Positions 163 to 53,831 of a DNA stretch of 64,000 bases are shown piece by piece. The position numbers were made by a program, and so were the translations under genes. The notes below the pieces were generated by a model. The model saw only the letters and a list, made by a program, of their open reading frames with translations. It was not told the DNA's origin and made no database searches. Within the stretch, counting starts at the first letter, position 1; every line of letters starts with the position of its first letter. This DNA comes from Solirubrobacteraceae bacterium (GTDB lineage: Bacteria; Actinomycetota; Thermoleophilia; Solirubrobacterales; Solirubrobacteraceae). The DNA lies in NCBI GenBank assembly GCA_025449845.1, contig JANWIP010000002.1, positions 21,868 through 85,867 on the forward strand. The letters are read 5' to 3'.

Positions 163-409
163 CACACCCCCAGCGCCCAAGCAGACATACGAGGCCGCGG
201 CTGCACGCGTGGAGGAGATCATCCGCCGTCTGGACTCCGGCGAGGCCAGCCTGGGTGAGACGCTGGAGCTCGTGAAAGAGGGCAAGACGCTGATCGAATA
301 TTGCGCCGGCGAGCTTGAGGCTGTCGGGGGGGCGCTAGAGGAGATGCGCCTGGACGAGCTGGTGGCGCGTCTGGAACGCGATGCCGGCAGCGGCGGAGGC
401 AACCCGTGA
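149..409 (+). CDS. xseB: exodeoxyribonuclease VII small subunit
   Basis: ATG at 149. The sequence YEAAAARVEEIIRRLDSGEASLGETLELVKEGKTLIEYC is typical of XseB. The 32..409 ORF was trimmed to the internal ATG that overlaps the xseA stop. Confidence 0.85.
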   Translation: MTMTDTPPAPKQTYEAAAARVEEIIRRLDSGEASLGETLELVKEGKTLIEYCAGELEAVGGALEEMRLDELVARLERDAGSGGGNP

Positions 410-488
410 GCCGTAGGGCACTCGTGAGCCGTGGGCAACTCGTGAGCCGTGGGCAACTCATGAGCCGTGGGGGCAACTTGTGAGCACC
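396..488 (+). repeat. 18-bp tandem array (about 5 copies, GTGAGCCGTGGGCAACTC) spanning the xseB stop to the next gene's GTG start
   Basis: GTGA/ATGA motifs at 406, 424, 442, 460 and 480, with spacings 18, 18, 18 and 20. The first copy holds the xseB TGA (407-409). The last copy holds the GTG start at 480. Confidence 0.9.
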
Positions 489-1529
489 TGGGAGCTGCTT
501 GCAGAGCTGCCGGTGGAGATCGAGAGCTGCACGCTGGAGGGCCTCTCGGCGAAGGTTTCGAGCGACTTTGAACGCCTGTCCACCGTCATCCACCTGCATG
601 GCAAGGATGAGGAGGGCATGGGTGAGGACGTGACATATGACGCCCCGGACCACGAAATCCTCCAGGCCGCCGGACCCCCGCCGGAGCTCAAAGGCAGCTG
701 GACTATGGCCAGCTTCTGCGAGCAGGTGGCCAAGCTGGACCTGTTCCCGGAGCTCCCTCAGCGCGAAGTGTCGCGGCGTTACCGGGTGTGGGCGTATGAG
801 TCCGCCGCTCTTGATCTGGCGCTGCGTCAGGCAGGTACCACGCTGCACCAAGCACTGGGGCGCACTCCTGAGCCGGTGCGCTTTGTGGTGTCGCTGCGCC
901 TGGGCGAGCCTCCCATCATGGAGCCGCTGCGCAGGCGCCTGGACCTGTACCCGTGGCTGAACTTCAAGCTCGACCCCACGAGCTCCTGGAGCCAGCCGCT
1001 AATCGAGGAGCTCAAGGCAACGGGCGCTGTGGAGTCGGTGGACTTCAAGGCGTACTACACAGGCTCGATCGTGGACCAGCCGGCGGACCCGGTGCTGTAC
1101 CGGCGCGTGGTCGAGGCGTTCCCGGACGCCTGGATCGAGGACCCGGCGCTAACGATCGAGACGGAGCCGGTCCTGGCGCTGCACCGCGAGCGCTTCTCCT
1201 GGGACGCGCCGATCCACTCGATCGAGGACATTCAGTCGCTGCTCTACCCACCGCGGATGGTGAACATCAAGCCTTCGCGTCTGGGCGGGCTGCGCAACCT
1301 GCTGGACGCGTTTGACTTCTGCGCCCAGCAGGGCATCGGCAACTACGGCGGCGGCCAGTTCGAGCTGGGCGTGGGTCGCGGTCAGATCCAGTACCTGGCG
1401 TCGCTGTTCCACGCGGACGCCCCCAACGACGTGGCCCCCACAGGCTTCAACCTGCCCGAGCCGGCGCCTGGACTGCCCTCAAGCCCTTTGGCGCCGACGG
1501 CGTCGGATACGGGCTTTCGCTGGGGTTAG
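480..1529 (+). CDS. enolase-superfamily-like protein (MR/MLE-type C-terminal barrel motifs), function unknown
   Basis: 349-aa ORF with GTG start. WIEDP and VNIKPSRLGG resemble the metal-ligand and barrel motifs of mandelate racemase/muconate-lactonizing enzymes. The family assignment is tentative. Confidence 0.5.
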   Translation: MSTWELLAELPVEIESCTLEGLSAKVSSDFERLSTVIHLHGKDEEGMGEDVTYDAPDHEILQAAGPPPELKGSWTMASFCEQVAKLDLFPELPQREVSRRYRVWAYESAALDLALRQAGTTLHQALGRTPEPVRFVVSLRLGEPPIMEPLRRRLDLYPWLNFKLDPTSSWSQPLIEELKATGAVESVDFKAYYTGSIVDQPADPVLYRRVVEAFPDAWIEDPALTIETEPVLALHRERFSWDAPIHSIEDIQSLLYPPRMVNIKPSRLGGLRNLLDAFDFCAQQGIGNYGGGQFELGVGRGQIQYLASLFHADAPNDVAPTGFNLPEPAPGLPSSPLAPTASDTGFRWG

Positions 1530-1609
1530 CCGCAACTTCTCTGCCGCGGCGCGGTTGGGAATCCCATAGTCGCTATGGTCGGGCGCCCGCCGCGCCCAGC
1601 CTCACAGTC

Positions 1610-3172
1610 ATGGCAAGCAAAGGTATCCACAAGCGCTCCTGGTCCTGGGCTGCGGCAGCCATTCTGGTGCTGCTGAGCATGCTGGCGCACGCCCCGGGAG
1701 TCTTGGCGAGCGCCAACCCCGGAGGCACCTCCCCCGGCGCCACTCCCAGCACCGGCCCCACGGGAGGGGCGACTCCCGCGGCTGCTCCGCGCCGCGCCAC
1801 CAGCCGCGGCAGGCGCGTGGTGAGGTTGTCGGACGCGCGCTGCGCGCCGTCCCCGAGCTGCACCACGAACCCCCATCAGGTGTCGGTGCGCGGTTACCTG
1901 GTGCTCTCGGGGCGGGGTCTTGAGAAGGGCCTGCGCGTGGCGTTCCCGCGCGTGCGCAACGCGGCGATCGCCCCCAACTCGCCGATGGCTCGCATCTACC
2001 AGTCGCCTTCGGGCTTGGCGGTGCACCTGCCGGGCAGCGCGCACTCGGGGCGGATCGCGGTGCTGGTGGGAGGCGGGCGGAAGTCCAACCCGGTAGGGCC
2101 GATCACGGTGCTTCCGTACGCGCTGCACCCTCCGCGGCCGAAAGCCCCGGCCCCCGCCCCTCCGGCGCAAGCGGCCAACGGGAGCGCGTTCGAAGGCCAG
2201 GGCATGTGGATCTGGTACGTCAGCAAGTCCTCAGGCGGCAACCTCCCGGCGCTCGTGGCGCAGGCCCACGCGGCAGGCGTCAGCACCGTGTTCGTGAAGA
2301 GCAGCGACGGCTCAAGCAACTACTGGAGCCAGTTCTCACCGGAACTGGTGGCGACGCTGCACGCCAACGGCCTGAAGGTCTGCGGCTGGCAGTACGTCTA
2401 CGGCACGAACCCCGTCGGCGAGGCTGAACTGGGCGCGCGCGCCGCGCAGGCAGGCGCGGACTGCCTCGTGATCGATGCGGAGTCAGAGTACGAAGGCCAC
2501 TACGCCTCAGCGCAGAAGTACATCGAAACGCTGCGCGCGGCTGTAGGCCCCGCCTACCCGGTAGGCCTGGCCTCCTTCCCCTACGTCGACTACCACGAGT
2601 CCGAGCCCTACTCCGTCTTCATGGGCCCCAATGGCGCGCAGTTCAACGCGCCGCAGATGTACTGGAAGGCCATCGGCACCTCGGTGGCCAACGTCTTCGC
2701 GCACACCTACGAGGAGAACCTGATCTACGGCCGCGCGATCGCGCCGCTGGGGCAGACTTATGAAAACCCCTCCTCCTCGGATCTCGTGGCCTTCCGCTCG
2801 CTGGCGGCGGCCTATGGCGCGCGCGGGCTGTCGTGGTGGGACTGGCAGGAGACCTCGACAGGTGGCTGGGCTGCCCTGGCGGAACCGCTGAACACGAGCC
2901 TGACGGTGCCCAACCCCGAGCTGACCTCTCCCCTGCTGGGCGAAGGCTCAAAGGGCGATCAGGTGCTCTGGATGCAGGAGCACCTCGCCACTGCCATCCC
3001 GGCGCAGGCGACGAGCGGCATCTTCGATGCGACCACGGCGTCTTATCTGGCGCAGTTCCAGACGGCTCATGGCATCCCAGCGACGGGCAAGACGGACCCG
3101 AGCACCTGGGCTGCGCTGCTGGCCTTGCCCCCCGTCGCCGTGGACTGGACCGGCGGCGGCCCCGCGGGCTGA
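1610..3172 (+). CDS. secreted protein with a glycoside-hydrolase-like (GHL10/DUF4015-like) core and a C-terminal peptidoglycan-binding domain
   Basis: Signal-peptide-like N-terminus (WSWAAAAILVLLSMLAHAPGVLASA). The C-terminus GDQVLWMQEHL..FDATTASYLAQFQTAHGIPATGKTDPSTWAAL matches the PG_binding_1 pattern. Confidence 0.6.
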   Translation: MASKGIHKRSWSWAAAAILVLLSMLAHAPGVLASANPGGTSPGATPSTGPTGGATPAAAPRRATSRGRRVVRLSDARCAPSPSCTTNPHQVSVRGYLVLSGRGLEKGLRVAFPRVRNAAIAPNSPMARIYQSPSGLAVHLPGSAHSGRIAVLVGGGRKSNPVGPITVLPYALHPPRPKAPAPAPPAQAANGSAFEGQGMWIWYVSKSSGGNLPALVAQAHAAGVSTVFVKSSDGSSNYWSQFSPELVATLHANGLKVCGWQYVYGTNPVGEAELGARAAQAGADCLVIDAESEYEGHYASAQKYIETLRAAVGPAYPVGLASFPYVDYHESEPYSVFMGPNGAQFNAPQMYWKAIGTSVANVFAHTYEENLIYGRAIAPLGQTYENPSSSDLVAFRSLAAAYGARGLSWWDWQETSTGGWAALAEPLNTSLTVPNPELTSPLLGEGSKGDQVLWMQEHLATAIPAQATSGIFDATTASYLAQFQTAHGIPATGKTDPSTWAALLALPPVAVDWTGGGPAG

Positions 3173-3282
3173 AAGCCAGAATCCCGCGCGGCGAGTTAGG
3201 CCGCGGCCCGGCGCAATCCACGCCGACCGCGGCCAACACAGGACAAGGGATTGGGACCCCACCCGCCCTCCTCCTCAAAAAA

Positions 3283-4473: not shown

Positions 4474-4572
4474 GATGGGAAGTCCTCCGTGTTTTGGTGG
4501 GAGTGGCGGAGGGCTGCTGTGGAAGCCGGACCCGGCGCCTGCAAGCAATATTCTACCGTGTCTGTCGACTAG

Positions 4573-7141: not shown

Positions 7142-7420
7142 TCAGCCCAATCCGTCGATCTCAGCCGCCAGCGCGAAGTCGGCTCCCGTGAGGCCTCCCT
7201 GCGAATGCGTGCTGAGCTCCAGGCGCACCTTGTTCCAGCCGTGCACGAGGATGTCGGGATGGTGGTTGGCCCGCTCGGCCAGCTCGGCGACGCGATTGAC
7301 GAAGACAATGGCCGCGGCGAAGTCAGCCAACTTCCACTCACGTACGATCGCCTCGCCCTCACGAGCCCAGTCGCTGTCCGCGAGCTGCTGCTCGATCTCC
7401 TCATCGCTCAGCCTGCTCAT
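7142..7420 (-). CDS. 4a-hydroxytetrahydrobiopterin (pterin-4-alpha-carbinolamine) dehydratase
   Basis: 92 aa. Contains FVNRVAELAERANHHPD..W..V..L.TH, the characteristic PCD motif. Confidence 0.85.
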   Translation of the reverse strand: MSRLSDEEIEQQLADSDWAREGEAIVREWKLADFAAAIVFVNRVAELAERANHHPDILVHGWNKVRLELSTHSQGGLTGADFALAAEIDGLG

Positions 7421-7498
7421 CCTCGAACCTCCTGCTCGCTCAACCTACTCATCACTCAATCTCCCAATCGTTTGCGCGCGGGCACTACATTCCGGGGT

Positions 7499-8398
7499 AT
7501 GCGCATCGTCAGCCTGGTCCCGCACGCCACGGAACTGCTGTTCGCGCTCGGCCTCGGAGACGAGGTTATCGCGGTGACGCACGAGTGCGACCACCCTACG
7601 CGAGCGTTGAAGCTGCGGCACGTGACGCGCGACATGCTTCCGCAGGGCCTGAGCGCGGCGGAGATCGACGCAGCGGTGCGCGAGCGCACGCTGAACGGCG
7701 GATCGATCTACGAGCTGGATGAGCAAGCTCTGCGCGCACTGAACCCCGACCTGATCGTCACACAGGCGCTCTGCCCGGTCTGCGCGGTCTCTCATACCGA
7801 GGTGGTTGAGCTGGCCAAGAGCATCCCCTCCCAGCCGCGCGTGCTGGCACTGGACCCCAAGACGCTTGGCGAGACGCTGGGTGACGTGCGCACCGTGGCA
7901 CAGGCCACCGACAGCCGCGACGCGGGCGTGGAGCTGATCGCCCGCATCGCGGGTCGCATCGACCGCGTCAAGCTGGCCGTGCGTGGCCGGCGACGCCCGC
8001 GCGTCGCGGCGCTGGAGTGGCTTGACCCGGTATTCGTGGCCGGCCACTGGACGCCTCAGCTGATCGACTTCGCCGGCGGCGAAGACGTGCTGGGGTTCGC
8101 GGGCGAACACTCGGAGGTGTTCACCTGGGAGGCGGTGGCGGCGGCGGAGCCTGAGATCGTCGTTGTGATGCCCTGCGGCTACGACGCCTCCCGGGCGCAC
8201 GAGGAGGCGATGACGTACGCCGAGCAGCTGGCTGGCCTGGGCGCGCGTCAGGTGGTGGCGGTCAACGCCTCGGCCTACTTCTCACGCCCCGGACCGCGGT
8301 TGGTCGATGGGCTTGAGCTGCTGGCGCACATCCTGCATCCCCAGGCCGTCGAGCAGGCCCCGGAGGAGGCGATCGCAGTCGAGCTGGTGAGCGTCTGA
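7499..8398 (+). CDS. BtuF/FhuD-like (cobalamin or Fe-siderophore type) substrate-binding protein with no obvious signal peptide
   Basis: The internal ATG at 7499 gives MRIVSLVPHATELLFALGLGDEVIAVTHECDHP, typical of the helical-backbone binding-protein family. The upstream part of the 7205 ORF overlaps the opposite-strand gene. Confidence 0.65.
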   Translation: MRIVSLVPHATELLFALGLGDEVIAVTHECDHPTRALKLRHVTRDMLPQGLSAAEIDAAVRERTLNGGSIYELDEQALRALNPDLIVTQALCPVCAVSHTEVVELAKSIPSQPRVLALDPKTLGETLGDVRTVAQATDSRDAGVELIARIAGRIDRVKLAVRGRRRPRVAALEWLDPVFVAGHWTPQLIDFAGGEDVLGFAGEHSEVFTWEAVAAAEPEIVVVMPCGYDASRAHEEAMTYAEQLAGLGARQVVAVNASAYFSRPGPRLVDGLELLAHILHPQAVEQAPEEAIAVELVSV

Positions 8399-8484
8399 GC
8401 GTCTGAAAGGGCCTTTGACGGCCGAAGGGCTTGACGGCTGAGCGGCTTTGACGGCCGAAGAGTTGGCGGCAGAGCTTGACGAGA
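8391..8484. repeat. stop-codon duplication (GCGTCTGA x2) followed by 16-18-bp repeats (AAGGGCTTTGACGGCCG, about 4 copies) between convergent genes
   Basis: GCGTCTGA at 8391-8398 (contains the stop) and again at 8399-8406. Copies at 8407-8424, 8425-8440 and 8441-8457, with degenerate copies to about 8484. Confidence 0.8.
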
Positions 8485-9288: not shown

Positions 9289-9347
9289 GTGCGGGCAAGA
9301 GCCTATCTCGGCCAGAGAGTCGGACCCGCCGGACCCGCCGGATCGGG

Positions 9348-10810: not shown

Positions 10811-10847
10811 TGCATGCTCGTCGGCATTGCATGCCCGTCGGCATTGC
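10811..10847. repeat. 17-bp direct repeat x2.2 (TGCATGCYCGTCGGCAT)
   Basis: Copies at 10811-10827 and 10828-10844 with one mismatch. They lie 21 bp downstream of the stop of the 10868 gene and upstream of the SigK-like gene. Confidence 0.8.
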
Positions 10848-11709: not shown

Positions 11710-12477
11710 TTACGCCGCCCGTGCCTGCTCCCGCTCCCGCGTGGCGCGGGTGGGCGGGAGCACGCTCCCCGCGCGTGTCTGCTCTCGAGGACGCGCCGGG
11801 ACTCCCCCCAGCCACTCCCACTGCAGGCTCACACAGTTCCAGACGCGCTCGGTCACACCTAACGCCGCCTCGGGTGAAGGTCGCCGCGCCAGGGGGAACA
11901 TCAGCGGAGCCCCGCAGCGGATGCGTACCTTGCGCGGCCGTATGCGCAGCCCACGGCGCACATCTTCGGTACCGATCACGGCGACCGGCACGACGTGCGC
12001 GCCGGTTTCCAGTGCCAGGCGCCCCACCCCGCGGTGGGGATGAGCAAGTGGGCCGCGGCGTGTGCGGGTGCCCTCGGGAAAGATCACCACGCAGTCCCCC
12101 CTTGCCAGGATCGCTCGTGCGGTGGCCATGGCATCCTCATCGCCGGCGCCCCGATCGATCGGAAAGGCCCCTAGCCGGTTGAGCAGCCAAGCCTGCCAAC
12201 GACGCGCGAAAAGCTCGCGCTTGGCGACGTAGTACACCGGCCTGCGCGTGAGCGAGCCGATCACGAACGGGTCAAGGAAACTGCGATGGTTGGCGGCCAG
12301 GATCAACGGGCCGCTGCGCGGCAGATGCTCCGTGCCGATGCGCTCCAGGCGGAAGTAGAGAAGAAAGAAGGGCAGCAGGAGAGCGCGGGCGAGCAGATAG
12401 AGCAGCGGATTGACGCCGTGCGACTGCGCGTGTGCACGAAAGCCCTCAAGCTCGGTGCTGTCACGGTTGCGGCCCAT
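11710..12477 (-). CDS. plsC: 1-acyl-sn-glycerol-3-phosphate acyltransferase
   Basis: NHRSFLDP (H-x4-D) and FPEGTRT motifs. ATG at 12477 was chosen over the longer 12612 ORF, which abuts the 3' end of the tRNA-Thr gene (12616). Confidence 0.8.
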   Translation of the reverse strand: MGRNRDSTELEGFRAHAQSHGVNPLLYLLARALLLPFFLLYFRLERIGTEHLPRSGPLILAANHRSFLDPFVIGSLTRRPVYYVAKRELFARRWQAWLLNRLGAFPIDRGAGDEDAMATARAILARGDCVVIFPEGTRTRRGPLAHPHRGVGRLALETGAHVVPVAVIGTEDVRRGLRIRPRKVRIRCGAPLMFPLARRPSPEAALGVTERVWNCVSLQWEWLGGVPARPREQTRAGSVLPPTRATREREQARAA

Positions 12478-18821: not shown

Positions 18822-18985
18822 TGCGTGTACGGCTCCTGATTCGCTGAATGGAACAGTACCTTACATCGACACGAGTTGCGAAATGGATGCCTTCAAGTAG
18901 CTGGAGCTTTGGCAGTCACAGTCGAGCGTTCCTGTCAAGCTGGTCTTTGCCCTACAGCCCTTTGCGTCAGTTCGAACGCCTTCGT

Positions 18986-19057
18986 CTGCGCATCGAGCAG
19001 CCTGTTCGCCTACGCATCTCGAAGCCTGTTCGCCTACGCATCGAGCAGCCCGATCTC
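18986..19057 (-). repeat. 3 x 24-bp tandem duplication of the LuxR-gene 3' end including its stop codon
   Basis: Plus-strand copies at 18986-19009, 19010-19033 and 19034-19057. The true TAG is at 19034-19036, a second in-frame TAG is at 19010-19012, and the third copy has CAG. Confidence 0.9.
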
Positions 19058-24410: not shown

Positions 24411-26270
24411 TCAGCGCCGGGGAAGTCTTTTTAAGGGGACTCCCGGAGGGAGTCCTGGGTTGGCCGCGTTGTGCGGGGAAGCCAATGGGCGGTGCACGTC
24501 AGGGCGTTGCCCGCTGCTATCGGTGTGTTCCTGCGGACCTATGGGCGGACGCGGACCCGAAAGCGGATGCGGACCTAAAGGCGGATGGGGACCCAAAGGC
24601 GGATTGGGACTCGAAGGCGGATTAGGATCCCCTACGGCCTGCGATACGTCGCCGAGGTCTTCCTGCGTGCCCGACCGAGGGCTGCAGTTGCCGCCGCCAC
24701 GTGACCCGCGGCCAGCGCTTGCGGAAGAGCTTGAATGCGGAGGGTCTACGGCGCTGCCACTCACACCCCCGGTGTGTTCACGAGAGGGCCGGGGCAGGCG
24801 GCGAACAGCCGCACGAGCGGAGCGCAGTGCAGAGGCGGAAGCTGGAGAGGTGACGCGCTGGGAATGGCCGAGAACGCCGTGCACCGTGTGTTCGAGGAGA
24901 CCGCCGACTTCGTGGACGACGGTGCCTACTGGACCGGTGGTCTGCGAAGTGGAGCCACCGGAAGGGGGAGGCGGAGAGCTGCCTTCTGATGCTCCGCCGG
25001 ATCCTTCCGCGCCTGCGCCACTGCCACCACCCGTGGAGCCGCCCCCCGATCCCCCGCTACTGCCGCTACCACCACCAGATGCAGGTTCCTGCGAACCGCC
25101 GCCCGTAGAGCCGCCGCTCGATGAACCACCCGAGCCGCCGGAGGAGCCTGGGGGTGGAGCACCGGAACCCGGAGCGGAGCTCGACGGCGGGGGCTGACTC
25201 GAGGACGCGGGAACCTGAACGGTGTAGCTCGTAGGAGTGGTGCCCTTGGGGACCATCGCCGCGAAGTGATGCGGGAAGACCGCCGATATGCGATGCGAAG
25301 TACTCGGGGCCACCGCTGTGACTTGCAGGCGTATAGGCCTGTCATGGTGAGCAAGCTGCCGGGCAGGAGCGTGCCCAGAGGAGATACCGACCCCAATACT
25401 CGCGGGAGAGCCGGCGGCGGGCACGCCACCCCCACTGGGAGCGCCAACGCCGGCGGTCTCGTGCCCGGCCCCGCCGGCAACGGAGTGAGCGTGGCGATGG
25501 ACAGAGGAGCCGGAATGCACGATGACGGTGCCGGTGATGACAGTGCCCGCAGTGAGTGCGGCAAGACCACCAGCCGCAAGCGAGCCCTTGACCAGCAGGC
25601 CGCCCAGCCCGAGGCCCCCGCCGGCGGCCAGTTCGCCGACGCGTTCGGCGCCGATGCCCTGGCCAGAGCCGGCCATCCAGGTGAGCAGCGGCGGAGGGGT
25701 GAGCGCGGTGATGGCGGTACGCAAGGTGGCGCGAGCGCGGTAGAGAAGTCCCCTGACAGCACCGTCGCTGATGCCCAGCGCGGTGGCAACCTCTTCGTGG
25801 CTGTGGCCAGCGAGAGCGGTGCGGAAGATGACCTCGCGTTGCATCTGCGGGAGCGCTGCCATGTCGGTGACGGCCTCGCGCAAGGCGAGACCGCCGGCCA
25901 GGTCGGAGTCGACCGCGGCGGTCTCGGCGAAGTTCAGGTCATCCAGATCGACGGCGAGGTTCGAGCCATCGCGGGCGGCGTCGCGGGCGATGTTCACGGC
26001 GGTGTTGTGGGCAATGCGGTAGAGCCAAGGCCGCAGCTCGCGCACCTGCGCGCCGCGGCGCAAGGCGGACCAGGCCTGTAGGAGCGACTGCTGGACGACG
26101 TCTTCGGCGCGGTTCTCGGAGACGGAGATGCGCCAGCAGTAGCGCAAGAGCGGCCGGCGATAGCGCTGGACGAGCGCCTCGAAGGCGCGATCGTGCCCCG
26201 CGCGGGCCATTGCGGCAAGCCGCTCGTCGGACTGCGTGGCCAGCAGGCGGGTGGATGCCTTGGGACTCAT
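24411..26270 (-). CDS. ECF-type sigma factor fused to a transmembrane segment and a long Gly/Ser/Pro-rich C-terminal extension
   Basis: Residues 1 to about 200 carry sigma regions 2 and 4 (DVVQQSLLQAWSAL, RPWLYRIAHNTAVN, LPQMQREVIFRTALAGHSHEEVATALGISDGAVRGLLYRAR). These are followed by a hydrophobic segment (GGLAALTAGTVITGTVIV) and about 380 aa of low complexity. Confidence 0.8.
   Translation of the reverse strand: MSPKASTRLLATQSDERLAAMARAGHDRAFEALVQRYRRPLLRYCWRISVSENRAEDVVQQSLLQAWSALRRGAQVRELRPWLYRIAHNTAVNIARDAARDGSNLAVDLDDLNFAETAAVDSDLAGGLALREAVTDMAALPQMQREVIFRTALAGHSHEEVATALGISDGAVRGLLYRARATLRTAITALTPPPLLTWMAGSGQGIGAERVGELAAGGGLGLGGLLVKGSLAAGGLAALTAGTVITGTVIVHSGSSVHRHAHSVAGGAGHETAGVGAPSGGGVPAAGSPASIGVGISSGHAPARQLAHHDRPIRLQVTAVAPSTSHRISAVFPHHFAAMVPKGTTPTSYTVQVPASSSQPPPSSSAPGSGAPPPGSSGGSGGSSSGGSTGGGSQEPASGGGSGSSGGSGGGSTGGGSGAGAEGSGGASEGSSPPPPSGGSTSQTTGPVGTVVHEVGGLLEHTVHGVLGHSQRVTSPASASALRSARAAVRRLPRPSREHTGGVSGSAVDPPHSSSSASAGRGSRGGGNCSPRSGTQEDLGDVSQAVGDPNPPSSPNPPLGPHPPLGPHPLSGPRPPIGPQEHTDSSGQRPDVHRPLASPHNAANPGLPPGVPLKRLPRR
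24537..24626 (-). repeat. 5 x 18-bp in-frame minisatellite encoding P-[NHR]-P-[PL]-x-G hexapeptides near the sigma-fusion C-terminus
   Basis: Plus-strand copies begin at 24537, 24555, 24573, 24591 and 24609 (ACCYAAAGGCGGATGSGG). Confidence 0.9.
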
Positions 26271-29884: not shown

Positions 29885-31275
29885 AGCGGTAGCAGTTCAA
29901 AGCCGGCCGCGCCGTCGCGGACCTCCCAGCCGAGCGCAGCGATCTCATCACGCAAGCGATCGGCGGTGGCGAAGTCGCGCTGCTCGCGCGCATGGTCACG
30001 CTGCGCCGCCAGTTCGCGTACCTGCTCCGGAGCGTCGGCTACCGGAGCCAGTAGCGACTCGAGACCGAGGACACCGAGCATTTCGCGCAGATGCGAGTCG
30101 CCTGTACCAAGGTGCTGGTCGCCTGTAACCAGGTGCGAGTCGCCTGGAGCATTTCCGCCGGCCAAAGCGATGGCCTCGCGCAGCCACTCATTGAGCACGG
30201 CCAGCGCCTCAGCGGTATTGAAGTCACGGGCAAGAACAGCGAAGAAGCGATCGCGCACCCCGTCGAGAGCAGCGGGGGAATCGCCCTCGGTCAACCTGCG
30301 TGCAGCCTCGCGGATGCGGCCCACATTCGCACGCGCCTGCTCCAGAGCAGCCTCGGAGAAGGCCAGTGGCTGGCGATAGTGCCCGCCGATGAGGTACATC
30401 ACGACGGACTCGGCACCGTAGCCCTCGATGACCTCGTGCAGCAGAGCGATGTTGCCGACCGACTTGGCCATCTTCTCGCCGGTGGACTGAATCATGCCGT
30501 TGTGCACCCACAGCCCCGCCAGTTCGTGCCCGCGCGCGGCGCGGGTCTGGGCTGCCTCGTTCTCATGGTGGGGAAAGACGAGATCCGAGCCGCCACCGTG
30601 GACGTCAAAGCCAACGCCAAGCAGGCTCTCGGCCATCGCCGAGCACTCGATGTGCCAGCCGGGTCGGCCCGGCCCCCAAGGCGACTCCCAGAAAGTGTCC
30701 TCTCCCTGCTTGTGCGCCTTCCAGAGGGCGAAGTCCAGCGGGTCCTGCTTGCGGTCAGAGCCCTCGACGCCCTCACCCTGGTCCATGTCCTCGATGCGAC
30801 GATGCGAGAGGGAGCCATAGCCATCGTCAGAGCGCACGCGAAAGAACACATCGCCCCCGCTCTCGTAGGCGTGCTCCTTGTCGATGAGCGTCTGGATGTA
30901 GTCGATGATCGGCCCCATCGTCTCCGCCGCGAGCGGCTCGTGGTCGGGCCGGCCGAGGCCTAGGGCGCCTGTGTCGGAGAAGTAGGCATCGGTCATCTCG
31001 CGCGCCAACTGCTCGCTAGCCACGCCGGCGTTGCGCGCGGCGACGTAGATCTTGTCATTGACGTCGGTGACGTTCACCACCAGTGTCACCTGATAGCCCT
31101 CGTGCTCCAGAAAGCGCTTCATCAGGCTGAAGATCACAAACGGGCGGGCGTTACCGATGTGGATGCGGCTGTAGACCGTAGGCCCGCAGGCGTAGATGCC
31201 GACCCGCCCGGGGTCGCGGGGCTTCAGCGGCAACAGCCCGCCCGAGCGGGTGTCGTGCAGACGAATCTCGCGCAT
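29881..31275 (-). CDS. cysS: cysteine--tRNA ligase
   Basis: HIGH (CGPTVYSRIHIGNAR) and KMSKS (KMAKSVGN) motifs. ATG at 31275. The 586-aa extension overlapping ispF was rejected. Confidence 0.93.
   Translation of the reverse strand: MREIRLHDTRSGGLLPLKPRDPGRVGIYACGPTVYSRIHIGNARPFVIFSLMKRFLEHEGYQVTLVVNVTDVNDKIYVAARNAGVASEQLAREMTDAYFSDTGALGLGRPDHEPLAAETMGPIIDYIQTLIDKEHAYESGGDVFFRVRSDDGYGSLSHRRIEDMDQGEGVEGSDRKQDPLDFALWKAHKQGEDTFWESPWGPGRPGWHIECSAMAESLLGVGFDVHGGGSDLVFPHHENEAAQTRAARGHELAGLWVHNGMIQSTGEKMAKSVGNIALLHEVIEGYGAESVVMYLIGGHYRQPLAFSEAALEQARANVGRIREAARRLTEGDSPAALDGVRDRFFAVLARDFNTAEALAVLNEWLREAIALAGGNAPGDSHLVTGDQHLGTGDSHLREMLGVLGLESLLAPVADAPEQVRELAAQRDHAREQRDFATADRLRDEIAALGWEVRDGAAGFELLPL
30088..30150 (-). 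repeat. 3 x 21-bp in-frame repeat inside cysS encoding GDSHLVT-GDQHLGT-GDSHL
   Basis: Plus-strand copies at 30088-30108, 30109-30129 and 30130-30150. Confidence 0.9.
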
Positions 31276-31303: not shown

Positions 31304-31780
31304 TCAGCGACTGCGCAAGCTGGCGGTGGCAAGCGCGGCGACGCCCTCGCCGCGACCGATGAAGCCCATGCCCTCGCCGGTGGTGGCCTTGATGTTGACG
31401 CGGGCGGGCGCAAGACCCAGCGCCCGGGCGAGTGCCTCACGGATCGCCTGCTTGTGCGGAGCGAGCTTGGGCCGCTCCATGATGACGGTGCAGTCCACGT
31501 TGACGATCTCAAGCCCGGCAGCGATGACAGTGGTGACAACCGTCTCCAGCAAGGCCAGCGAATCGGCGTCTCGGTAGCGCTCATCGGTGTCGGGGAAGTG
31601 CTCGCCGATGTCTCCGAGCCCGGCTCCGCCGAGCAGGGCATCGATCAAGGCGTGGATCAACACATCGGCGTCGGAGTGCCCATCCAGACCGCGCTCGTAG
31701 GGAATCTCCACGCCACCCAGGATGAGCTTGCGCCCAGGGACAAAGCGATGGCAGTCATAGCCAATGCCGGCGAGGCTCAC
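31304..31780 (-). CDS. ispF: 2-C-methyl-D-erythritol 2,4-cyclodiphosphate synthase
   Basis: [21 protein letters not shown] and the overall length (158 aa). GTG start at 31780. Confidence 0.93.
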
Positions 31781-31880
31781 AGCACACCAGCCCCGCTCAC
31801 AGCATCAGCCCTGCTCACATCAGCCCTGCTCACAGCATCCCTGCTCACAGCACCAGCCCCACTCACAGCACACCAGCCCC
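31777..31880 (-). repeat. 6-copy 15-20-bp tandem array (..GGGCTGRTGCTGTGAGC..) spanning the PHP-gene stop to the ispF GTG start
   Basis: Minus-strand GTGA motifs begin at 31866, 31848, 31833, 31818, 31800 and 31780, with spacings 18, 15, 15, 18 and 20. The first contains the PHP TGA. The last contains the ispF GTG. Confidence 0.9.
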
Positions 31881-32702
31881 AATCGGCTCCGAGCGCCGCT
31901 GACGATGCTCGAAGACGCATAGCTCCCCCACCCCGAGGCTCGCCAAGAGCTCGAGCGCCTGCTCGTAGTCGGCGCCGATGTCCTCGGGGCGGTGGGCGTC
32001 ACTGGAGAGCGCCACGGGGCAGCCGGCTTCCAGGCACATCTCAAGCAAGGCGGGTGCAGGGTAGATCTCCTGCGCGCGCTTGCGCAAGCCGGCAGTGGAG
32101 ACCTCGATGGCGATGCCCGACTCGGCGATGCCATCCATCGCAAGCTCGTAGTAGCGACGCAGATCGCCTTCGGGCAAGGGCCGCTCAACACCCCAAACCT
32201 TCACGAGGTCGGGGTGGGCGAGGATGTCGAACAGGCCCGAGCGCGCAGCCTCCCCCAGCGTCTGGAAGTAGCGCCGCCAGATGTCCTCGGCGCCGCGTGT
32301 CGATGCCCACACGCTCCAGTCCTCCATGTCCAGAGATTGATCGCGGAGAAAGTGAACGGAGCCCACGACATAGTCGAAGTCGCGGGACTGGAGCAGATTC
32401 GCGGTGCGATCCTCGGCGCCCCGCACGAAGTCGGCCTCGATGCCCAGCCGCAGATCGGTGTCCTCCCGCACGAAGCGGCAGTAGTCATCGAGATCGTCAT
32501 GTGCATATTCACGCCACAGGGGATGCTGCCACACCTCTAAGGCCTGGCGGAAGCGATAGATGTGCTCGGACACCCCCAGCTCTCCGATCTCCCGTTTCTC
32601 CGCGGCTTCGCGATAGCGCTCGGCGTTGGCAGCGGTGAAGTGCTCATCCGCGGTGGCGGCGAGGTCATCGGGGCGCAGATGCGTGTGGTAATCGGTGAGC
32701 AT
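31863..32702 (-). CDS. PHP-family histidinol-phosphatase-like protein
   Basis: The N-terminal MLTDYHTHL plus later SVHF, ILAHPD and LSSDAH motifs are characteristic of HisJ/HisK-type PHP phosphatases. Confidence 0.8.
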   Translation of the reverse strand: MLTDYHTHLRPDDLAATADEHFTAANAERYREAAEKREIGELGVSEHIYRFRQALEVWQHPLWREYAHDDLDDYCRFVREDTDLRLGIEADFVRGAEDRTANLLQSRDFDYVVGSVHFLRDQSLDMEDWSVWASTRGAEDIWRRYFQTLGEAARSGLFDILAHPDLVKVWGVERPLPEGDLRRYYELAMDGIAESGIAIEVSTAGLRKRAQEIYPAPALLEMCLEAGCPVALSSDAHRPEDIGADYEQALELLASLGVGELCVFEHRQRRSEPIGAGVL

Positions 32703-32721: not shown

Positions 32722-33477
32722 TCAAGCAGGCGGAGCCGCCGGCTGGCCGGCGCGCTGGGCGATCAGCATTTCAGCAAGCGCAAGATCGAGCGGGGTTGTC
32801 ACTTTGAGATTCTCACGCGGAGCCGGCACGACTACGACGATCCCGCCAGCACGCTCGATCAGCCAAGCGTCGTCAGTGGCTTGGGCAAGCACATCATCGG
32901 GAACGTCAAGTGCCCGCTCCAGCGCGCCGCGGCGGAAGACCTGCGGCGTCTGCACGGCCCACAGGCTTGAGCGCTCAAGCGTCTCGGTGACCACGCGATC
33001 GGCGCCGGCACGCTTGACCGTGTCCGTGACGGGGGCCGCCGCAATAGCGCCATCGACGCCATCGCGGGAAGCAGCCGCAAGTGTGTCCTCGATCAACGCC
33101 GCGCTGAGCAGCGGCCGCGCGGCATCATGAACCAGCACCAGGTCCGAGTCCTCTCCATCGACAACGGCAAGCGCCAGGCGCACCGACTCCGAGCGCACCG
33201 CCCCACCCTCGGCGACGATCACTTTGCCCGCATCTACATCCACGCCCGCATCGATATCCACGCCCGCAGCGGCACCGCTACCTACGCCAAGCGCCACCTG
33301 CTCTTCATCGACCCCAGGCGGCAGCGCCACAACGATGCGCTCGATCGCACCCACGCCGCGCAGCGCGTCAAGGCTCCACTGAAGCAGCGGCCTACCCGCC
33401 AACTCGACGAGCGCCTTGGGACGCGTAGCCCCCAGGCGCTCGCCGCGTCCGGCGGCGAGAATCAGCGCAACAGCCAA
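32722..33477 (-). CDS. ispD: 2-C-methyl-D-erythritol 4-phosphate cytidylyltransferase
   Basis: ILAAGRGERLG..PKALVELAGRPLL, VLVHDAARP and VQTPQVF motifs. Confidence 0.9.
   Translation of the reverse strand: MAVALILAAGRGERLGATRPKALVELAGRPLLQWSLDALRGVGAIERIVVALPPGVDEEQVALGVGSGAAAGVDIDAGVDVDAGKVIVAEGGAVRSESVRLALAVVDGEDSDLVLVHDAARPLLSAALIEDTLAAASRDGVDGAIAAAPVTDTVKRAGADRVVTETLERSSLWAVQTPQVFRRGALERALDVPDDVLAQATDDAWLIERAGGIVVVVPAPRENLKVTTPLDLALAEMLIAQRAGQPAAPPA
33227..33280 (-). repeat. 18-bp in-frame repeat (2 good copies plus 1 degenerate) inside ispD encoding GVDIDA-GVDVDA
   Basis: Plus-strand CCCGCATCTACATCCACG at 33227-33244 and CCCGCATCGATATCCACG at 33245-33262, with a degenerate copy to 33280. 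Confidence 0.85.
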
Positions 33478-35218: not shown

Positions 35219-35290
35219 GACTACCCATTCTACGGCATCGAGCCTCGATTTACCGCGTGGTTACTGGACAAAGCGTCCAGATTCGACATA

Positions 35291-35384
35291 TTAGGCAGGG
35301 CTATGCCGCGGCGCGCGGCCGAGCGCTCTCCGCAAGGTAGGCAGGGCTACGCCGCAGCGCGCGGGCGAGCGCGGTCCGCAAAGG
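35291..35384 (-). repeat. 2 x 47-bp tandem duplication of the radA 3' end including its TAG stop
   Basis: Plus-strand copies at 35291-35337 and 35338-35384. The second copy carries the last 12 codons and the TAG (35347-35349) of radA. The first copy carries a paralogous ATAG. Confidence 0.85.
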
Positions 35385-43470: not shown

Positions 43471-43560
43471 GACGGGAACCGCTCCGCGGAAGGACGGGGA
43501 ACCGCTCCGCGGAAGGACGGGGAACCGCTCCGCGGGGGAAGGGCTCCGCTTCGCTCCGCC
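43471..43560. repeat. 22-23-bp tandem repeat x3 plus a degenerate tail (GACGGGGAACCGCTCCGCGGAAG) between coaX and dusB
   Basis: Copies at 43471-43492, 43493-43515 and 43516-43541. Each contains the palindrome TCCGCGGA. Confidence 0.85.
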
Positions 43561-49696: not shown

Positions 49697-51918
49697 CAAC
49701 CTTCCAAGACGCCGATAGGCGGAGATCCTTCCCGTGGTGTCCCCTCGCGCAAACCGATGCGCCGATGCAGCTTGCGCAGCGGCCGCGGCGCCCACCAGGC
49801 GCGCTCACCGAGGATGCCCATGATCGCCGGTACGAGCAGCGCGCGCACGACGGTGGCATCGATCGCCACGGCCAGCGCAGCGCCCACGCCCAGCTGCTTG
49901 ACGAAGAAGATATGGGAGCTCGCGAAGGCGCCGATCGCCACGCAGAAGAGCAGTGCGGCAGCTGTGACCAGGCGCCCAGTGCGCTCAAGCCCCCGAGCGA
50001 TGGCCTCGCGCGCGGGGAGACCTTCATCGTGGGCCTCTTTGATGCGCCCGAACAGGAACACGCCGTAGTCGGTGGAGAGCGCGAAGGCGATCACGAACAG
50101 CAGCACCAGATTAGCCTCCTCCAGGCCGCCGATCGGGCTGAAGCCGAGCAGCGAGGAGAAGTGGCCGTCCTGGAAGACGAGCACCAGCAGACCCGCGCCG
50201 ACGGCCACCGTGAGCAGGTTCATGGCCAGCGCAATCAGCGGCATCACAGCGGAGCCCGTCATCAGGAAGAGGAAGCCGCAGGTGACGAGCGCGAGGATCA
50301 TCAGCACCACGGGCACGTGCGCGGCGATCGAGGACTTCTGATCGATGAAGCCCGCGGTGGGGCCACCGACGAGGACGCCGCGCGGGTTGACGAGCGCGCG
50401 CAAACGCCTAACAAGAGCCTGGTTGGCGGCAGAGGCGCCCGAGCCCTGCGGCAGCAGATCGATCTCCCACTGCCCCTGGCCGAGATAGCGCGGCGGGGCC
50501 ACCTGCGCCTGTCCCGCGGCGATGCGCTGGGACTGCACCGCCAGCGCCTGCACGGCCGGTGCTACCGCGCCAGACCTGCCCTGGCCGCCGGTGCCCTGCC
50601 CAGAGCCGCCACGCCCACCCTGGCCGCCCGCGCCTGCCACCACCATGGTGATCGTCTGCGAGCCGTCCACGGCGAAGTCACTGGTGAGCACGCCTGAGAC
50701 CTGGCGCGTCTCCGAGGAGGCCGGCAACACGCGCGGGTCAGCCGGAGTCAACGCCAGACGCAGTGCGGGCGAAGCGATCGCCAGCAGCACCAAGGAGGTG
50801 AGCAGCGCGACGGTACCCGGACGGCGCATGACGGCACGCGCCAAGCGCGCCCAGCCGCCTTCCTCATCAGCACTCGCGGCGCGGGCCGTACCCCGCTGCA
50901 TCCACTTCGGCGAGAGCGCATCGATGCGCGGCCCCAGCGCGATCAGCACCGCGGGCAGCACCAACAGCGAGACGCCGCCGGCCATCAGCGCCACGGCCGC
51001 TCCCCCGACCCCCATCGAGTAGAGAAAACGCTCAGGAAAGACAAGCATCGAGGCCAGCGCGCCGGCGACGGTCAGCGAACCGTAGAGCACGGTGCGCCCG
51101 GCAGTCTGCAGCGTGCGCCCGATGGCCTCGCGCGGCTCCTGGCCGGCGGCGAGCTCCTCGCGGTAGCGCGAGAGCACGAACAGGCTGTAGTCGATCCCCA
51201 GCCCCAGCCCCACGCCAGTGACGAGGTTGACAGCGAAGATCGAGAGCCCCGCGAACTGGTCGACGAGGCGCAGGATCACGAACGCAAGCACGATCGCAAA
51301 GCCGCCAACGAGCAGCGGCAGCATCGCCGCGACGAGGCCGCGGAAGACCCACAGCGAGAGCAGCAGCAGGATCGGGAAGGCGAGCAGCTCGGCGCGCTCA
51401 AGGTCAGAGGCGGTGCGGCGGTTGATTTCATCGAAGGCGACGTCCTGCCCACCGAAGTGAACCCCGGAGCGGGCCAGCTGAGGACGCAGCTTGGCGACGG
51501 CCGAGGAGGACTCTTCCTGCGTGGCGAAGGCCGCCAGCACGACGCTCTCGCGGCCATCGCGCGAGACGAGCTGCACCAGATGACTGGAGGGATAGTCAAG
51601 CACCCGCTGAAAGCCCTTCTGCGCCGCCAGCAGTGCGGCGACGTGCGCGGCAAGGTGCTGCGCACGCGGGTCGCTGCGCACATCCCCGGAGCTCCTGACG
51701 AGCGCGGCCACGCCGTAATCGGGCGACTGCCCGGTGGCCCGCTGGATCGCGGCCTTGGTCCGCAGGCTCTGATCGTGCAGATCGTGGAAGTCGTTGGAGC
51801 GCCCCTTGAGAACGCTGGTCACAGGGGTCCCCAGCGCCGCGGCCAGCAGAAACACGATGCCGGCCAGCGTCAAAACACGGCGAGGATGCCCGGTGGCCAG
51901 AGCCGTCAAACGATTCAT
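49696..51918 (-). CDS. MMPL-family (RND superfamily) membrane transporter
   Basis: 740 aa with a duplicated 6-TM architecture. Typical MMPL segments (GIDYSLFVLSRYREE, STDYGVFLFGRIKEA). Confidence 0.9.
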   Translation of the reverse strand: MNRLTALATGHPRRVLTLAGIVFLLAAALGTPVTSVLKGRSNDFHDLHDQSLRTKAAIQRATGQSPDYGVAALVRSSGDVRSDPRAQHLAAHVAALLAAQKGFQRVLDYPSSHLVQLVSRDGRESVVLAAFATQEESSSAVAKLRPQLARSGVHFGGQDVAFDEINRRTASDLERAELLAFPILLLLSLWVFRGLVAAMLPLLVGGFAIVLAFVILRLVDQFAGLSIFAVNLVTGVGLGLGIDYSLFVLSRYREELAAGQEPREAIGRTLQTAGRTVLYGSLTVAGALASMLVFPERFLYSMGVGGAAVALMAGGVSLLVLPAVLIALGPRIDALSPKWMQRGTARAASADEEGGWARLARAVMRRPGTVALLTSLVLLAIASPALRLALTPADPRVLPASSETRQVSGVLTSDFAVDGSQTITMVVAGAGGQGGRGGSGQGTGGQGRSGAVAPAVQALAVQSQRIAAGQAQVAPPRYLGQGQWEIDLLPQGSGASAANQALVRRLRALVNPRGVLVGGPTAGFIDQKSSIAAHVPVVLMILALVTCGFLFLMTGSAVMPLIALAMNLLTVAVGAGLLVLVFQDGHFSSLLGFSPIGGLEEANLVLLFVIAFALSTDYGVFLFGRIKEAHDEGLPAREAIARGLERTGRLVTAAALLFCVAIGAFASSHIFFVKQLGVGAALAVAIDATVVRALLVPAIMGILGERAWWAPRPLRKLHRRIGLREGTPREGSPPIGVLEG

Positions 51919-51924
51919 GGCTCA

Positions 51925-51953
51925 TTTATAGTGACTGCTAACTAATTTGTCAA
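51925..51953 (-). promoter_or_regulatory. sigma-70-type promoter TTGACA-17 nt-TATAAA, with the -10 ending 6 nt before the MMPL ATG (predicts a leaderless mRNA)
   Basis: Minus-strand read: TTGACAaattagttagcagtcacTATAAAtgagccATG. The -35 is at 51953-51948 and the -10 at 51930-51925. No SD is possible. Confidence 0.5.
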
Positions 51954-51974
51954 GGGATACTGTTTTGCCTGCCC

Positions 51975-52082
51975 TTTTGCCAGCAAGACACGCCGCTATT
52001 TTGCCCGCAAGACACGCCGCTATTTTGCCAGCAAGACACGCCGCTAGACGGCTACTGCTTTTGCGGACAAGCTACGCCGCTA
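51975..52082. repeat. 24-bp direct repeats (TTTTGCCAGCAAGACACGCCGCTA): 3 near-perfect copies plus 1 degenerate copy, just upstream of the MMPL promoter
   Basis: Copies at 51975-51998, 51999-52022 and 52023-52046, with a degenerate copy at 52059-82. Confidence 0.9.
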
Positions 52083-52175
52083 GGCGCGTAGCGAAACAAC
52101 TCGATCTTGGCTTGCCGGCAGATGGAGAGGCATGCCAGTCGGTTCCTGCCTCGCATGCCAGCGCGTACGACACAG

Positions 52176-52706
52176 CTACTGCTCGGCCTCGCGCCAAACC
52201 TCGACTGAGACCTCATCCACCGGCAGCGGAATCGGCGGCTCCGGCTTGGCGGCCTTGACCCAGACGCCTTCGAGGTCGTAGTCGGCCAGTAGGCGGTCGG
52301 CGATGGTCGAGCAGAGCCGCTCCAAGGTCTTGTGCTGGCGCTGCTGGGCGATGAGGGCGACCAACTGACAGACCTCGCCGTAGTCGACGGTGTCCTCAAT
52401 CTCGTCGGTGACGGTCGCGTCGGTCTCGCCGACATCGAGGCGCAGGTCGAAGACGAGTCGTTGACCAACCTCACGCTCGGCGGCGCTTACGCCGTGGTGC
52501 GTGTAGAGCGAGAGGCCCGTGATCTCGATGGTGACGGACTCGAGCACCTCCTCATCACGGTCCTCGCCGTCGCCGTCGCCGTCGCCGTCCTCCTCGCCGA
52601 TGTCCTGGTCCTCATCCTCAAGACCCTCGACATCGAACTCGCGCTCGTCGAGCCCCTCCTCGTTCAGGTCGTCGTCCTCGCCGCTGGTGGGGCTGTCGCC
52701 GACCAT
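52176..52706 (-). CDS. folB: dihydroneopterin aldolase with an acidic N-terminal extension of about 55 aa
   Basis: Core is IEITGLSLYTHHGVSAAEREVGQRLVFDLRL...DTVDYGEV. The N-terminal extension is rich in D/E, includes a GDGDGDG repeat, and overlaps the folP 3' end by 43 nt. A shorter GTG start near 52545 is possible. Confidence 0.85.
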   Translation of the reverse strand: MVGDSPTSGEDDDLNEEGLDEREFDVEGLEDEDQDIGEEDGDGDGDGEDRDEEVLESVTIEITGLSLYTHHGVSAAEREVGQRLVFDLRLDVGETDATVTDEIEDTVDYGEVCQLVALIAQQRQHKTLERLCSTIADRLLADYDLEGVWVKAAKPEPPIPLPVDEVSVEVWREAEQ

Positions 52707-53593
52707 GCGCCCAAAGTAGCAGCCGCCGCGAGCAGCGCGGCACGCACCGGGGCCACGTCGTGCACGCGAAATACGCTGCCCCCCCGCTCGTAGGCCATGA
52801 CGCTGGTAGCAATTGTGCCCGGCAGCCGCTCTCCCACCTCGGCCGGCTCCCGTTGCCCACGAGCATCCGCAAGCAGCCGCCCTAGGAAGCTCTTGCGCGA
52901 AGTACCCACCACCAGCGGCCGCCCGAGCACCCGCAGCTCATCCAGGCGCCGTAGCAGCTCCAGGTTGTGTTGCAGCGTCTTGCCAAAGCCAATGCCGGGA
53001 TCGAGCAGCACCCGCTCCTCGCGCACGCCAGCAGCAACGGCGAAGCGCAGGCGCTCCTCCAGAAAGGCCTTGACGTCATCGACAACGTCCTCGTAGCGAG
53101 GGTCGTGCTGCATGGTGCGCGGCTCACCGAGCATGTGCATGAGGCAGCAGTCAGCCCCACTGCCCGCCACCACGTCAGCCATCGCGGGGTCCGCGCGCAA
53201 GGCACTGACATCGTTGACGAGCGTGGCGCCGGCAGCAAGCGCGGCGCGAGCAACGGCAGCCTTGGAGGTGTCGATCGAGATCTGCGCATCCGGCGTTCCG
53301 GCCAGACGCTCGATCACGGGGACGACGCGGCGCAGCTCCTCGGCCTCCCCCACCGGCTCGGCCCCCGGCCGCGTGGACTCCCCGCCGATGTCGAGGATGT
53401 CGGCCCCCTGAGCAACCAACTCGCGGCCGTGCGCGACGGCAGCCTGCGCGTCCAGAAAGAGACCTCCGTCGGAGAACGAATCCGGCGTGACGTTGACGAT
53501 GCCCATGAGGCGGAAGGGCAAATCGAGAGTGATGTCGACAGGGAGAGCTGGGATGGGAGGCTCTATTTTTCGTTTAAGTGCGCCATTGTCCAT
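52664..53593 (-). CDS. folP: dihydropteroate synthase
   Basis: MGIVNVTPDSFSDGG, DIGGESTRPG and GTSRKSF motifs. Confidence 0.92.
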   Translation of the reverse strand: MDNGALKRKIEPPIPALPVDITLDLPFRLMGIVNVTPDSFSDGGLFLDAQAAVAHGRELVAQGADILDIGGESTRPGAEPVGEAEELRRVVPVIERLAGTPDAQISIDTSKAAVARAALAAGATLVNDVSALRADPAMADVVAGSGADCCLMHMLGEPRTMQHDPRYEDVVDDVKAFLEERLRFAVAAGVREERVLLDPGIGFGKTLQHNLELLRRLDELRVLGRPLVVGTSRKSFLGRLLADARGQREPAEVGERLPGTIATSVMAYERGGSVFRVHDVAPVRAALLAAAATLGAWSATAPPAARTTT

Positions 53594-53707
53594 ACAACGT
53601 CAATACCATCGCACACAAACTTTAAAACAAAGACCCCCAACCCCCGCCTTTATCTTCCCTTTAGCCTCCGCGCTGGGCCTGGCTCCCCCATGCTGACCTC
53701 CGCTCCG

Positions 53708-53831
53708 CCTCCATCTCTGCCTTCTCGCCACCTCCATCCCTACCGTCGCGCCTCCATCCCTACCGTCGCGCCTCCATCCCTGCCGTCGCTCCGCCTCCAT
53801 CCCTGCCGTCGCGCCCCTCCATACTGCCGCG
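53708..53831. repeat. 20/23-bp tandem repeat, about 6 copies (CCTCCATCCCTACCGTCGCG), between the ftsH stop and folP start
   Basis: Copies begin at 53708 (degenerate), 53731, 53751, 53771, 53794 and 53814 (degenerate). Confidence 0.9.

Follow-up and report, generated by a model that had tools for sequence, protein, structure and literature searches.

Introduction

Close direct repeats are said to be created by slippage, a general theory attributed to Achaz and Rocha and to Lovett, and the mycobacterial interspersed repetitive units (MIRU) were reportedly studied by Supply in 1997 and 2000. The MIRU have been described as mobile and as inserting at start codons, with −4 coupling of the MIRU open reading frame (ORF) (review, PMC12548453). 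Short gene overlaps are associated with termination-reinitiation coupling (PMC6728339), and frequent gains and losses of such overlaps have been described (bioRxiv 10.64898/2026.09.10.750558) in a text from which the words duplication, insertion and indel are absent. Here, tandem arrays of short units were analysed in a 64-kb window of a Solirubrobacteraceae bacterium (GCA_025449845.1, contig JANWIP010000002.1, positions 21,868 to 85,867), where an original prediction had described them as minisatellites nucleated at stop and start codons or kept in frame inside genes. The arrays are quite probably ordinary minisatellites of the variable number tandem repeat (VNTR) type, subject to birth and death by slippage and purifying selection in a high-GC, gene-dense Solirubrobacterales genome. 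Gene density accounts for what looks like nucleation at stops and starts.

Results

Tandem arrays and their position relative to genes

Arrays were called with Tandem Repeats Finder (TRF), overlapping calls were merged and a cut-off score of at least 50 was applied. The null for array number consisted of 40 dinucleotide shuffles of the window, which has a GC content of 66%. There were 14 merged arrays scoring at least 50 in the window, compared with a mean of 0.88 (maximum 3) in the shuffles, and 56 scoring at least 30, compared with 21. Head-to-tail units of roughly 10–100 bp were present above chance, as is typical of VNTRs and minisatellites, and the 8-bp and 9-bp arrays (TRF scores of 38 and 44) were near the chance level. 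The predicted presence of at least 13 arrays was borne out, with a TRF array no more than 5 nt from every named position, and two further arrays were identified (7400–7459 and 52564–52599).

The arrays were read in gene orientation, and Pfam profile coordinates were used to check the starts; the starts of ispF and of the Pterin_4a gene were confirmed. As had been predicted, five arrays carry the upstream stop codon in the first copy (xseB, the Peripla_BP_2 gene, the LuxR/MalT gene, the PHP gene and radA), two end on the start of the next gene (the GTG of the DUF8230 gene and that of ispF), and the three arrays originally listed inside coding sequences (CDSs), with units of 18, 21 and 18 bp, are in frame. 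These three encode peptide repeats.

Going by the recorded gene calls for this DNA, coding sequence makes up 91% of the window, and the median spacer length is 70 nt. When the 16 window arrays were placed at random unconditionally, 0.96 stop-covering arrays were expected and five were observed (P = 0.0018). Twelve of the 16 lay outside the CDS interiors, where 2.5 were expected. When these 12 were placed at random outside the CDS interiors only, the expectation rose to 4.43 stop-covering arrays, compared with the five observed (P = 0.48), and 4.68 start-covering arrays were expected, compared with three. All four in-CDS arrays were in frame (units of 18, 21, 18 and 6 bp).

A pooled set of 277 arrays was compiled from the window and 80 orthologous loci of different Solirubrobacterales species (1.5 Mb; numbered L013–L092), with genes called by a codon-usage gene caller. 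The in-CDS arrays were depleted (160 observed, 219 expected), and 145 of the 160 (91%) had a period divisible by three. Intergenic arrays numbered 80, compared with 27 expected, and stop-covering arrays 26, compared with 18.7. Among the pooled non-CDS arrays, 22% covered a stop, compared with 33% of random non-CDS intervals, and 58% of all the pooled arrays were inside a CDS and far from the gene ends. The special attraction to stops and starts was thus not upheld in the window or in the pooled set; the association arises because the arrays are excluded from CDS interiors in a compact genome, and the placement is consistent with random once this exclusion is allowed for.

Between-copy identity ranged from 74% to 100% across the arrays, with most at 74–88%. 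When each unit was compared with the window in every rotation and in both orientations, no dispersed copies were identified beyond chance matches. The longest word common to different units was at most 8 nt, and each unit was derived from local sequence, including codons of the flanking genes. As the units are unrelated and locally derived, a process common to the arrays, rather than a family of mobile elements, lies behind them, in agreement with the original prediction. The transcripts of 10 arrays folded no better than shuffles (z-scores of −1.7 to +1.2), and the arrays lack the palindromic, dispersed, hairpin-forming units of the REP/BIME type.

All the arrays are at most 130 bp long, below the typical read length, and most were identical across two to six independent assemblies. 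In metagenome-assembled genomes (MAGs) of relatives, the array density was 10.6 per 64 kb in long-read and 13.0 per 64 kb in short-read assemblies. The arrays are not artefacts, because the independent assemblies agree and the long-read MAGs match the short-read density.

Turnover and copy-number change

Arrays that arose independently cover the stop codon of radA in the window (46-bp unit) and in the relatives L014 (22 bp), L073 (44 bp) and L059 (71 bp), and their units differ. A block of ~45 nt before the start of disA is conserved in 81 Solirubrobacterales sequences (TAAA..GGCTAAATGCCnTAGAATGGG, followed by ~8 nt and then GTG). It is present at 35219–35270 on the minus strand of the window and just upstream of position 10001 in L013–L092, and probably serves as a promoter whose leader is very short. 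All the arrays of the radA-disA spacer are in the variable part beside the radA stop, upstream of the conserved block.

The in-CDS arrays align as clean, frame-keeping insertions. The repeat in CysS is a derived insertion, with 60 of 72 relatives shorter by 14–17 residues at this site, and at the IspD repeat the window protein is longer by 24 residues than that of 37 of 73 relatives. The IspD surface loop contains one in-frame repeat in the window (33226–33268) and a different one in the closest relative, L014 (around 11900–12100), and it is a hot spot for tolerated duplications. The arrays are species-specific, and the range of between-copy identity is as expected from continuous birth and decay.

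Exact-protein matches placed this DNA in two other assemblies, on a 231-kb contig of MAG GCA_036554315.1 and on the 434-kb JGI metagenome contig Ga0373467_0000002, with which the window was compared. Independently assembled sequences of this strain share over 50 kb with the window, and within that stretch there was one single-nucleotide polymorphism (SNP) besides two differences in copy number. At 43474 the window has 2.7 copies, whereas GCA_036554315.1 has one 23-bp unit fewer (1.7 copies), and in the JGI contig the 53705 array has two extra identical central units (+40 bp; 20-bp units). Both changes fall in arrays with identical copies, which points to slippage that is faster than point mutation. 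Copy number thus varies between close strains, as in VNTRs, on a comparison of assemblies and not of reads. No further copy-number variants were found with the exact 23-nt flank of the 53705 array, which had no matches in metagenome_contigs, where the strain is apparently absent.

The segment 30135–51696 of the window has a single mismatch to both L010 and L011 (NCBI MAG and JGI contig), and the window therefore represents a further, third assembly from that population.

Duplicated gene overlap junctions

The PHP/ispF junction overlaps in 59 of 75 relatives, of which 38 have a 4-nt and 21 a 1-nt overlap, and an array was present there in none of the 75. In the window, the entire 82-nt PHP-ispF spacer is made up of the 31775 array. 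As the relatives overlap at this junction and have no array, the spacer is derived, and it is apparently a tandem duplication of the overlapping junction. A PHP-domain gene (window 31863–32702) was present between ispD and ispF in 76 of 80 loci of the clade. The xseB/DUF8230 array similarly looks like a tandem duplication of a 4-nt GTGA stop/start overlap.

At the cysS/spoU junction, a GTGA overlap was observed in 57 of 70 relatives. Arrays were present at this junction in L074 (17 bp × 1.9), L056 (27 bp × 2.7), L052 (29 bp × 2.8) and L073 (56 bp × 2.5). Each of their units contains the motif of the stop/start overlap, and the array lies between the two genes and separates them. Judged from the sequences, this junction has been duplicated independently four times in the relatives. 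This is as selection predicts, because at an overlap any duplication that does not span the whole overlap would break an ORF.

Both junction arrays of the window contain a mini-ORF (Table 1). The mini-ORF at 406–483 begins with a GTG that overlaps the xseB TGA, and its own TGA overlaps the GTG at 480, giving GTGA at both ends; it may be a chance product. The frame that permits such a mini-ORF to end on the downstream start was observed in four of six junction arrays (binomial p = 0.10), and at this level no claim is made for selection of a relay mini-ORF frame.

A search of the open-access literature turned up no account of overlaps being lost through duplication of the junction. The recurrent duplication of GTGA junctions illustrates a way, possibly not described before, in which overlaps are lost, and it provides a repeated natural case of overlapping junctions that are pulled apart with both ORFs left intact.

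Array density across the clade

Arrays scoring at least 50 were present at 14 per 64 kb in the window, 11.2 (range 0–48) in the relatives and 8.8 in the controls, and the window and the relatives were 1.3–1.7 times as dense as the controls, which were plasmids and chromids and not chromosomes (Rhodococcus pRHL1, the Ralstonia megaplasmid and Thermus pTT27; 350 kb in total). The density in the relatives rose with GC content (rho = 0.59), and the counts were overdispersed among species (variance/mean of 2.4).

The array-rich relatives (L052 and L073 over the whole locus, L021 at panK-dus and L059 at radA-disA) had 13–16 arrays in 21 kb, with spacers of 350–400 nt that were enlarged by 27-bp × 5 and 71-bp × 3 arrays. 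No arrays were present in L024, L025, L032, L045, L047, L063 and L068.

Gene setting and individual arrays

The arrays are listed in Table 1. The window has the gene order of a conserved actinobacterial block, xseAB ... cysS-ispF-PHP-ispD-carD-disA-radA-clpC-lysS-greA-dus-panK ... folK-MMPL-folB-folP-ftsH-hpt-tilS. The relatives of DisA among the species-representative genomes were without exception MAGs of Solirubrobacterales or Solirubrobacteraceae.

Table 1. Tandem arrays and array-spanning mini-ORFs, in window coordinates
Position	Strand	Unit and copies	Gene context
398–485	+	18 bp × 4.8, last spacing 20 nt; C-GTGA-GCC in every unit	First-copy TGA (407–409) is the xseB stop; last-copy GTG (480) is the DUF8230 gene start
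406–483	+	25-codon mini-ORF	Runs through the 398 array; translation VSRRALVSRGQLVSRGQLMSRGGNL, then stop	
7400–7459	-	16 bp × 3.8, 73% matches	Over the Pterin_4a ATG (7420–7418) and part of the divergent spacer
8388–8406	+	8 bp (TGAGCGTC) × 2.4; score 38	Second TGA (8396–8398) is the Peripla_BP_2 gene stop	
8407–8475	.	16/33-bp units	Fill the convergent spacer between the Peripla_BP_2 and rhomboid genes	
9321–9342	-	9 bp × 2.4; score 44	Begins 5 nt past the RskA stop	
10811–10847	-	17 bp × 2.2	20 nt 3' of the stop of an 87-aa ORF, 5' of an ECF sigma gene	
18981–19050	-	24 bp × 2.9	First copy is the last codons and TAG (19036–19034) of a LuxR/MalT-type gene	
24532–24622	-	18 bp × 5, in frame	Proline-rich hexapeptides (NPPSSP/HPPLGP...) in the C-terminal extension of a 619-aa protein	
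30092–30146	-	21 bp × 2.6, in frame	cysS: GDSHLVT/GDQHLGT/GDSHLRE	
31775–31874	-	15–20 bp × ~5.6, GTGA in each	First copy holds the PHP stop (31865–31863), last copy the ispF GTG (31780)	
31777–31866	-	29-codon mini-ORF	Runs through the 31775 array; GTGA overlap at both ends	
33226–33268	-	18 bp × 2.4, in frame	ispD: AGVDID/AGVDVD/AGKV	
35292–35381	-	46 bp × 2.0	First copy is the radA 3' end and TAG (35349–35347); 5' of the conserved disA promoter-like block	
43474–43535	-	23 bp × 2.7, copies 100% identical	panK-dus spacer	
51975–52046	-	24 bp × 3.0, 95% matches	folB-MMPL spacer	
52564–52599	-	TCGCCG × 4.3 (also 18 bp × 2), in frame	folB	
53705–53833	-	20–23 bp × 5–6	Begins 6 nt past the ftsH stop (53842–53840); ftsH-folP spacer	

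The array at 18981–19050 was the same in six assemblies. In the spacer array at 8407–8475, no significant fold was identified on either strand. The transcribed strand of the 53705–53833 array is purine-rich, with GGAGG and ATG in every unit (GGGATGGAGG), and as GGAGG recurs in each unit, Shine-Dalgarno-like motifs are multiplied upstream of folP.

Three to four 24-bp direct repeats (TAGCGGCGTGTCTTGCTGGCAAAA) are present at 51921–52046 on the minus strand, directly 5' of a TTGACA-17-TATAAA sequence that stops 7 nt short of the MMPL start codon (ATG). These repeats could be operator or activator sites at a leaderless-type promoter. A promoter and terminator consensus scan around the 51975 array called nothing; the TTGACA-17-TATAAA sequence lacks the T that the promoter rule of the scan requires at the sixth position of the −10 hexamer.

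The 619-aa ORF that contains the 18-bp repeats (24411–26270, minus strand) has no Pfam match on record and was not called by the JGI gene caller. Pfam profile coordinates place an ECF sigma factor domain at its N-terminus (residues 22–186), followed by an extension of ~430 aa with the repeats, and the ORF is on these coordinates a real gene with an ECF sigma domain and a long extension.

Discussion

The arrays can be accounted for by the following sequence of events. Tandem duplications of 15–60 bp would arise more or less at random, by replication slippage or template switching. Given two identical copies, slipped-strand misalignment would alter the copy number faster than point mutation, in line with the two copy-number changes described above. 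Purifying selection eliminates the frame-breaking duplications, as the placement statistics show. What survives is arrays in spacers, arrays that preserve the original 3' end and stop in their first copy or the original start in their last, and arrays that stay in frame within tolerant protein loops. Because 91% of the DNA is coding and the spacers measure ~70 nt, most of the surviving arrays must touch a gene end. Point mutations then erode the arrays, which are left as longer spacers; this erosion is evident because the copies of different arrays range from identical to only 74% identical. A GTGA overlap would be a special case, in which only a duplication of the whole overlap keeps both ORFs, so that the array begins on a stop, ends on a start and has GTGA in each unit. 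A striking link between repeats and stops or starts can come about without any special mechanism where 91% of the genome is coding, and the main value of the analysis is as a corrective.

Several observations weigh against this explanation. The wholly intergenic arrays lean towards the stop side (median relative position of 0.32, Kolmogorov-Smirnov p = 0.023, n = 47). In a rough count per bp of tolerated target, the overlapping, short and long junctions had 5, 9 and 21 arrays, with 1.7, 6.5 and 26.7 expected (p of about 0.01, uncorrected for phylogeny), an excess at the overlapping and short junctions compared with the long spacers. Strong arrays (score of at least 70, period of 10–60) were present at 11 per 64 kb in the window, 4.4 in the relatives and 1.46 in the controls, which is about seven times the control density for the window (P = 3 × 10−5) and about three times for the relatives (P = 4 × 10−4). 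The clade, and this lineage especially, has a raised load of well-developed minisatellites, and selection in the original prediction may account for part of the excess in the window. Species that are about equally related vary in load by a factor of more than 10; L013 has one array in 21 kb and L014 has nine in 16 kb, both at about 80% identity to the window, and some lineages may have had an unusual mutational input. Slippage is an inferred and not an observed mechanism here, and the copy-number differences could reflect the choice of the assembler within a mixed population.

The excess of strong arrays over three unrelated high-GC replicons and the overdispersed counts, with an array-rich closest relative (L014) and an equally distant one with a single array (L013), would fit a lineage-specific replication or repair peculiarity that makes duplications preferentially at gene ends, such as sites of transcription or translation termination, in which case the association would be mutational and not selective. 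The mild stop-side lean and the four independent hits on the radA stop also favour it. A gene-end peculiarity of this kind is nevertheless unlikely, as there was no excess at stops over random placement once the CDS interiors were left out, and more than half of the pooled arrays are in CDSs, in frame and distant from gene ends. The conserved promoter-like block before disA likely explains the stop-side lean at radA-disA, the density at a score of at least 50 was only slightly above that of the controls and tracked the GC content, and the genes for ExoVII (xseA/xseB), radA and disA are intact in the window. The original prediction had also offered selection for tunable junctions, in which the copy number sets the spacing, translational coupling or promoter strength, as in contingency loci. 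Such selection would be consistent with the copy-number variation of two intergenic arrays within a nearly clonal population, with the relay mini-ORFs and GTGA at both ends of both window junction arrays, with the frame of four of six junction arrays and with the position of the 51975 array directly upstream of a promoter-like sequence. The frame result is weakened by its p-value of 0.10. No array is conserved at orthologous junctions, including PHP/ispF, and junctions that were hit repeatedly carry different units; no array folds better than shuffles; most arrays have eroded to an identity that should halt slippage; and the genes beside the arrays have housekeeping roles that do not obviously call for switching. 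Tunable junctions are, on this evidence, very unlikely.

The copy-number differences of two arrays between assemblies of otherwise the same sequence are what artefacts of short-read metagenome assembly could produce. This is hardly credible for the arrays as a whole, given that they are shorter than typical reads, that most are identical in up to six independent assemblies, that the long-read MAGs of relatives are equal in density and that the in-CDS arrays are clean insertions that keep the frame. Insertion of a dispersed repeat family of the MIRU, REP or MITE type at gene junctions would match the MIRU-like layout of two arrays, in which small ORFs overlap the neighbouring stop and start, and has a negligible probability in view of the absence of a common word longer than 8 nt, of dispersed copies and of hairpins; the units are, moreover, built of local junction sequence with codons of the flanking genes included. 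A joint reading goes further. Junction duplication would be a general, recurrent route of overlap loss, with arrays that are tolerated or even kept because a relay mini-ORF, with GTGA overlaps at both ends, hands the terminating ribosome to the downstream gene, and the more than 10-fold differences in load would reflect a heritable difference in replication or repair; we regard this combination as doubtful.

With ordinary VNTR-type minisatellites as the preferred explanation, the copy number of these arrays outpaces SNPs in an uncultured soil clade, and the arrays are possible strain markers in metagenomes. The wide differences in load between sister species would make a search for the responsible replication or repair factor feasible with whole genomes.

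Compared with known systems, the arrays share with the contingency loci of phase variation the presence of slippage-mutating repeat tracts in or beside genes. The contingency loci have units of 1–8 nt in many copies that switch frames on and off, whereas the arrays in the window have units of 15–46 bp, are all in frame when inside a CDS and are associated with housekeeping genes, and they do not belong to this class. The MIRU also occur in Actinomycetota, in spacers between co-directional genes, and for the 398 and 31775 arrays only, the small ORFs share 4 nt with the stop on the upstream side and with the start on the downstream side (406–483 and 31866–31777). This relay-ORF layout appears to match the description of the MIRU, but it is built from local sequence. 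The MIRU form one dispersed family with a shared consensus and units of 40–100 bp, whereas each unit here is unique and copied from the local junction, mostly with a length of 15–24 bp, outside the MIRU range (the exception is the 46-bp unit at 35292). The MIRU are described as mobile, and nothing points to mobility of the present arrays. Among short gene overlaps, −4 overlaps (ATGA/GTGA) are canonical; the PHP/ispF and cysS/spoU junctions are of this type and the overlap has been lost in some lineages, and in comparison with the losses described in bioRxiv 10.64898/2026.09.10.750558, the cause is visible here as a tandem duplication of the junction. The closest correspondence is with the VNTRs or minisatellites used in multiple-locus VNTR analysis (MLVA) typing, which likewise have head-to-tail units of ~10–60 bp in two to six copies, are enriched in spacers, stay in frame within genes, shift in copy number between near-identical strains and have their own unit at each locus. 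There is no essential difference from these; the present arrays are from uncultured Solirubrobacterales (Thermoleophilia), and their strong arrays are denser than those of three high-GC replicons.

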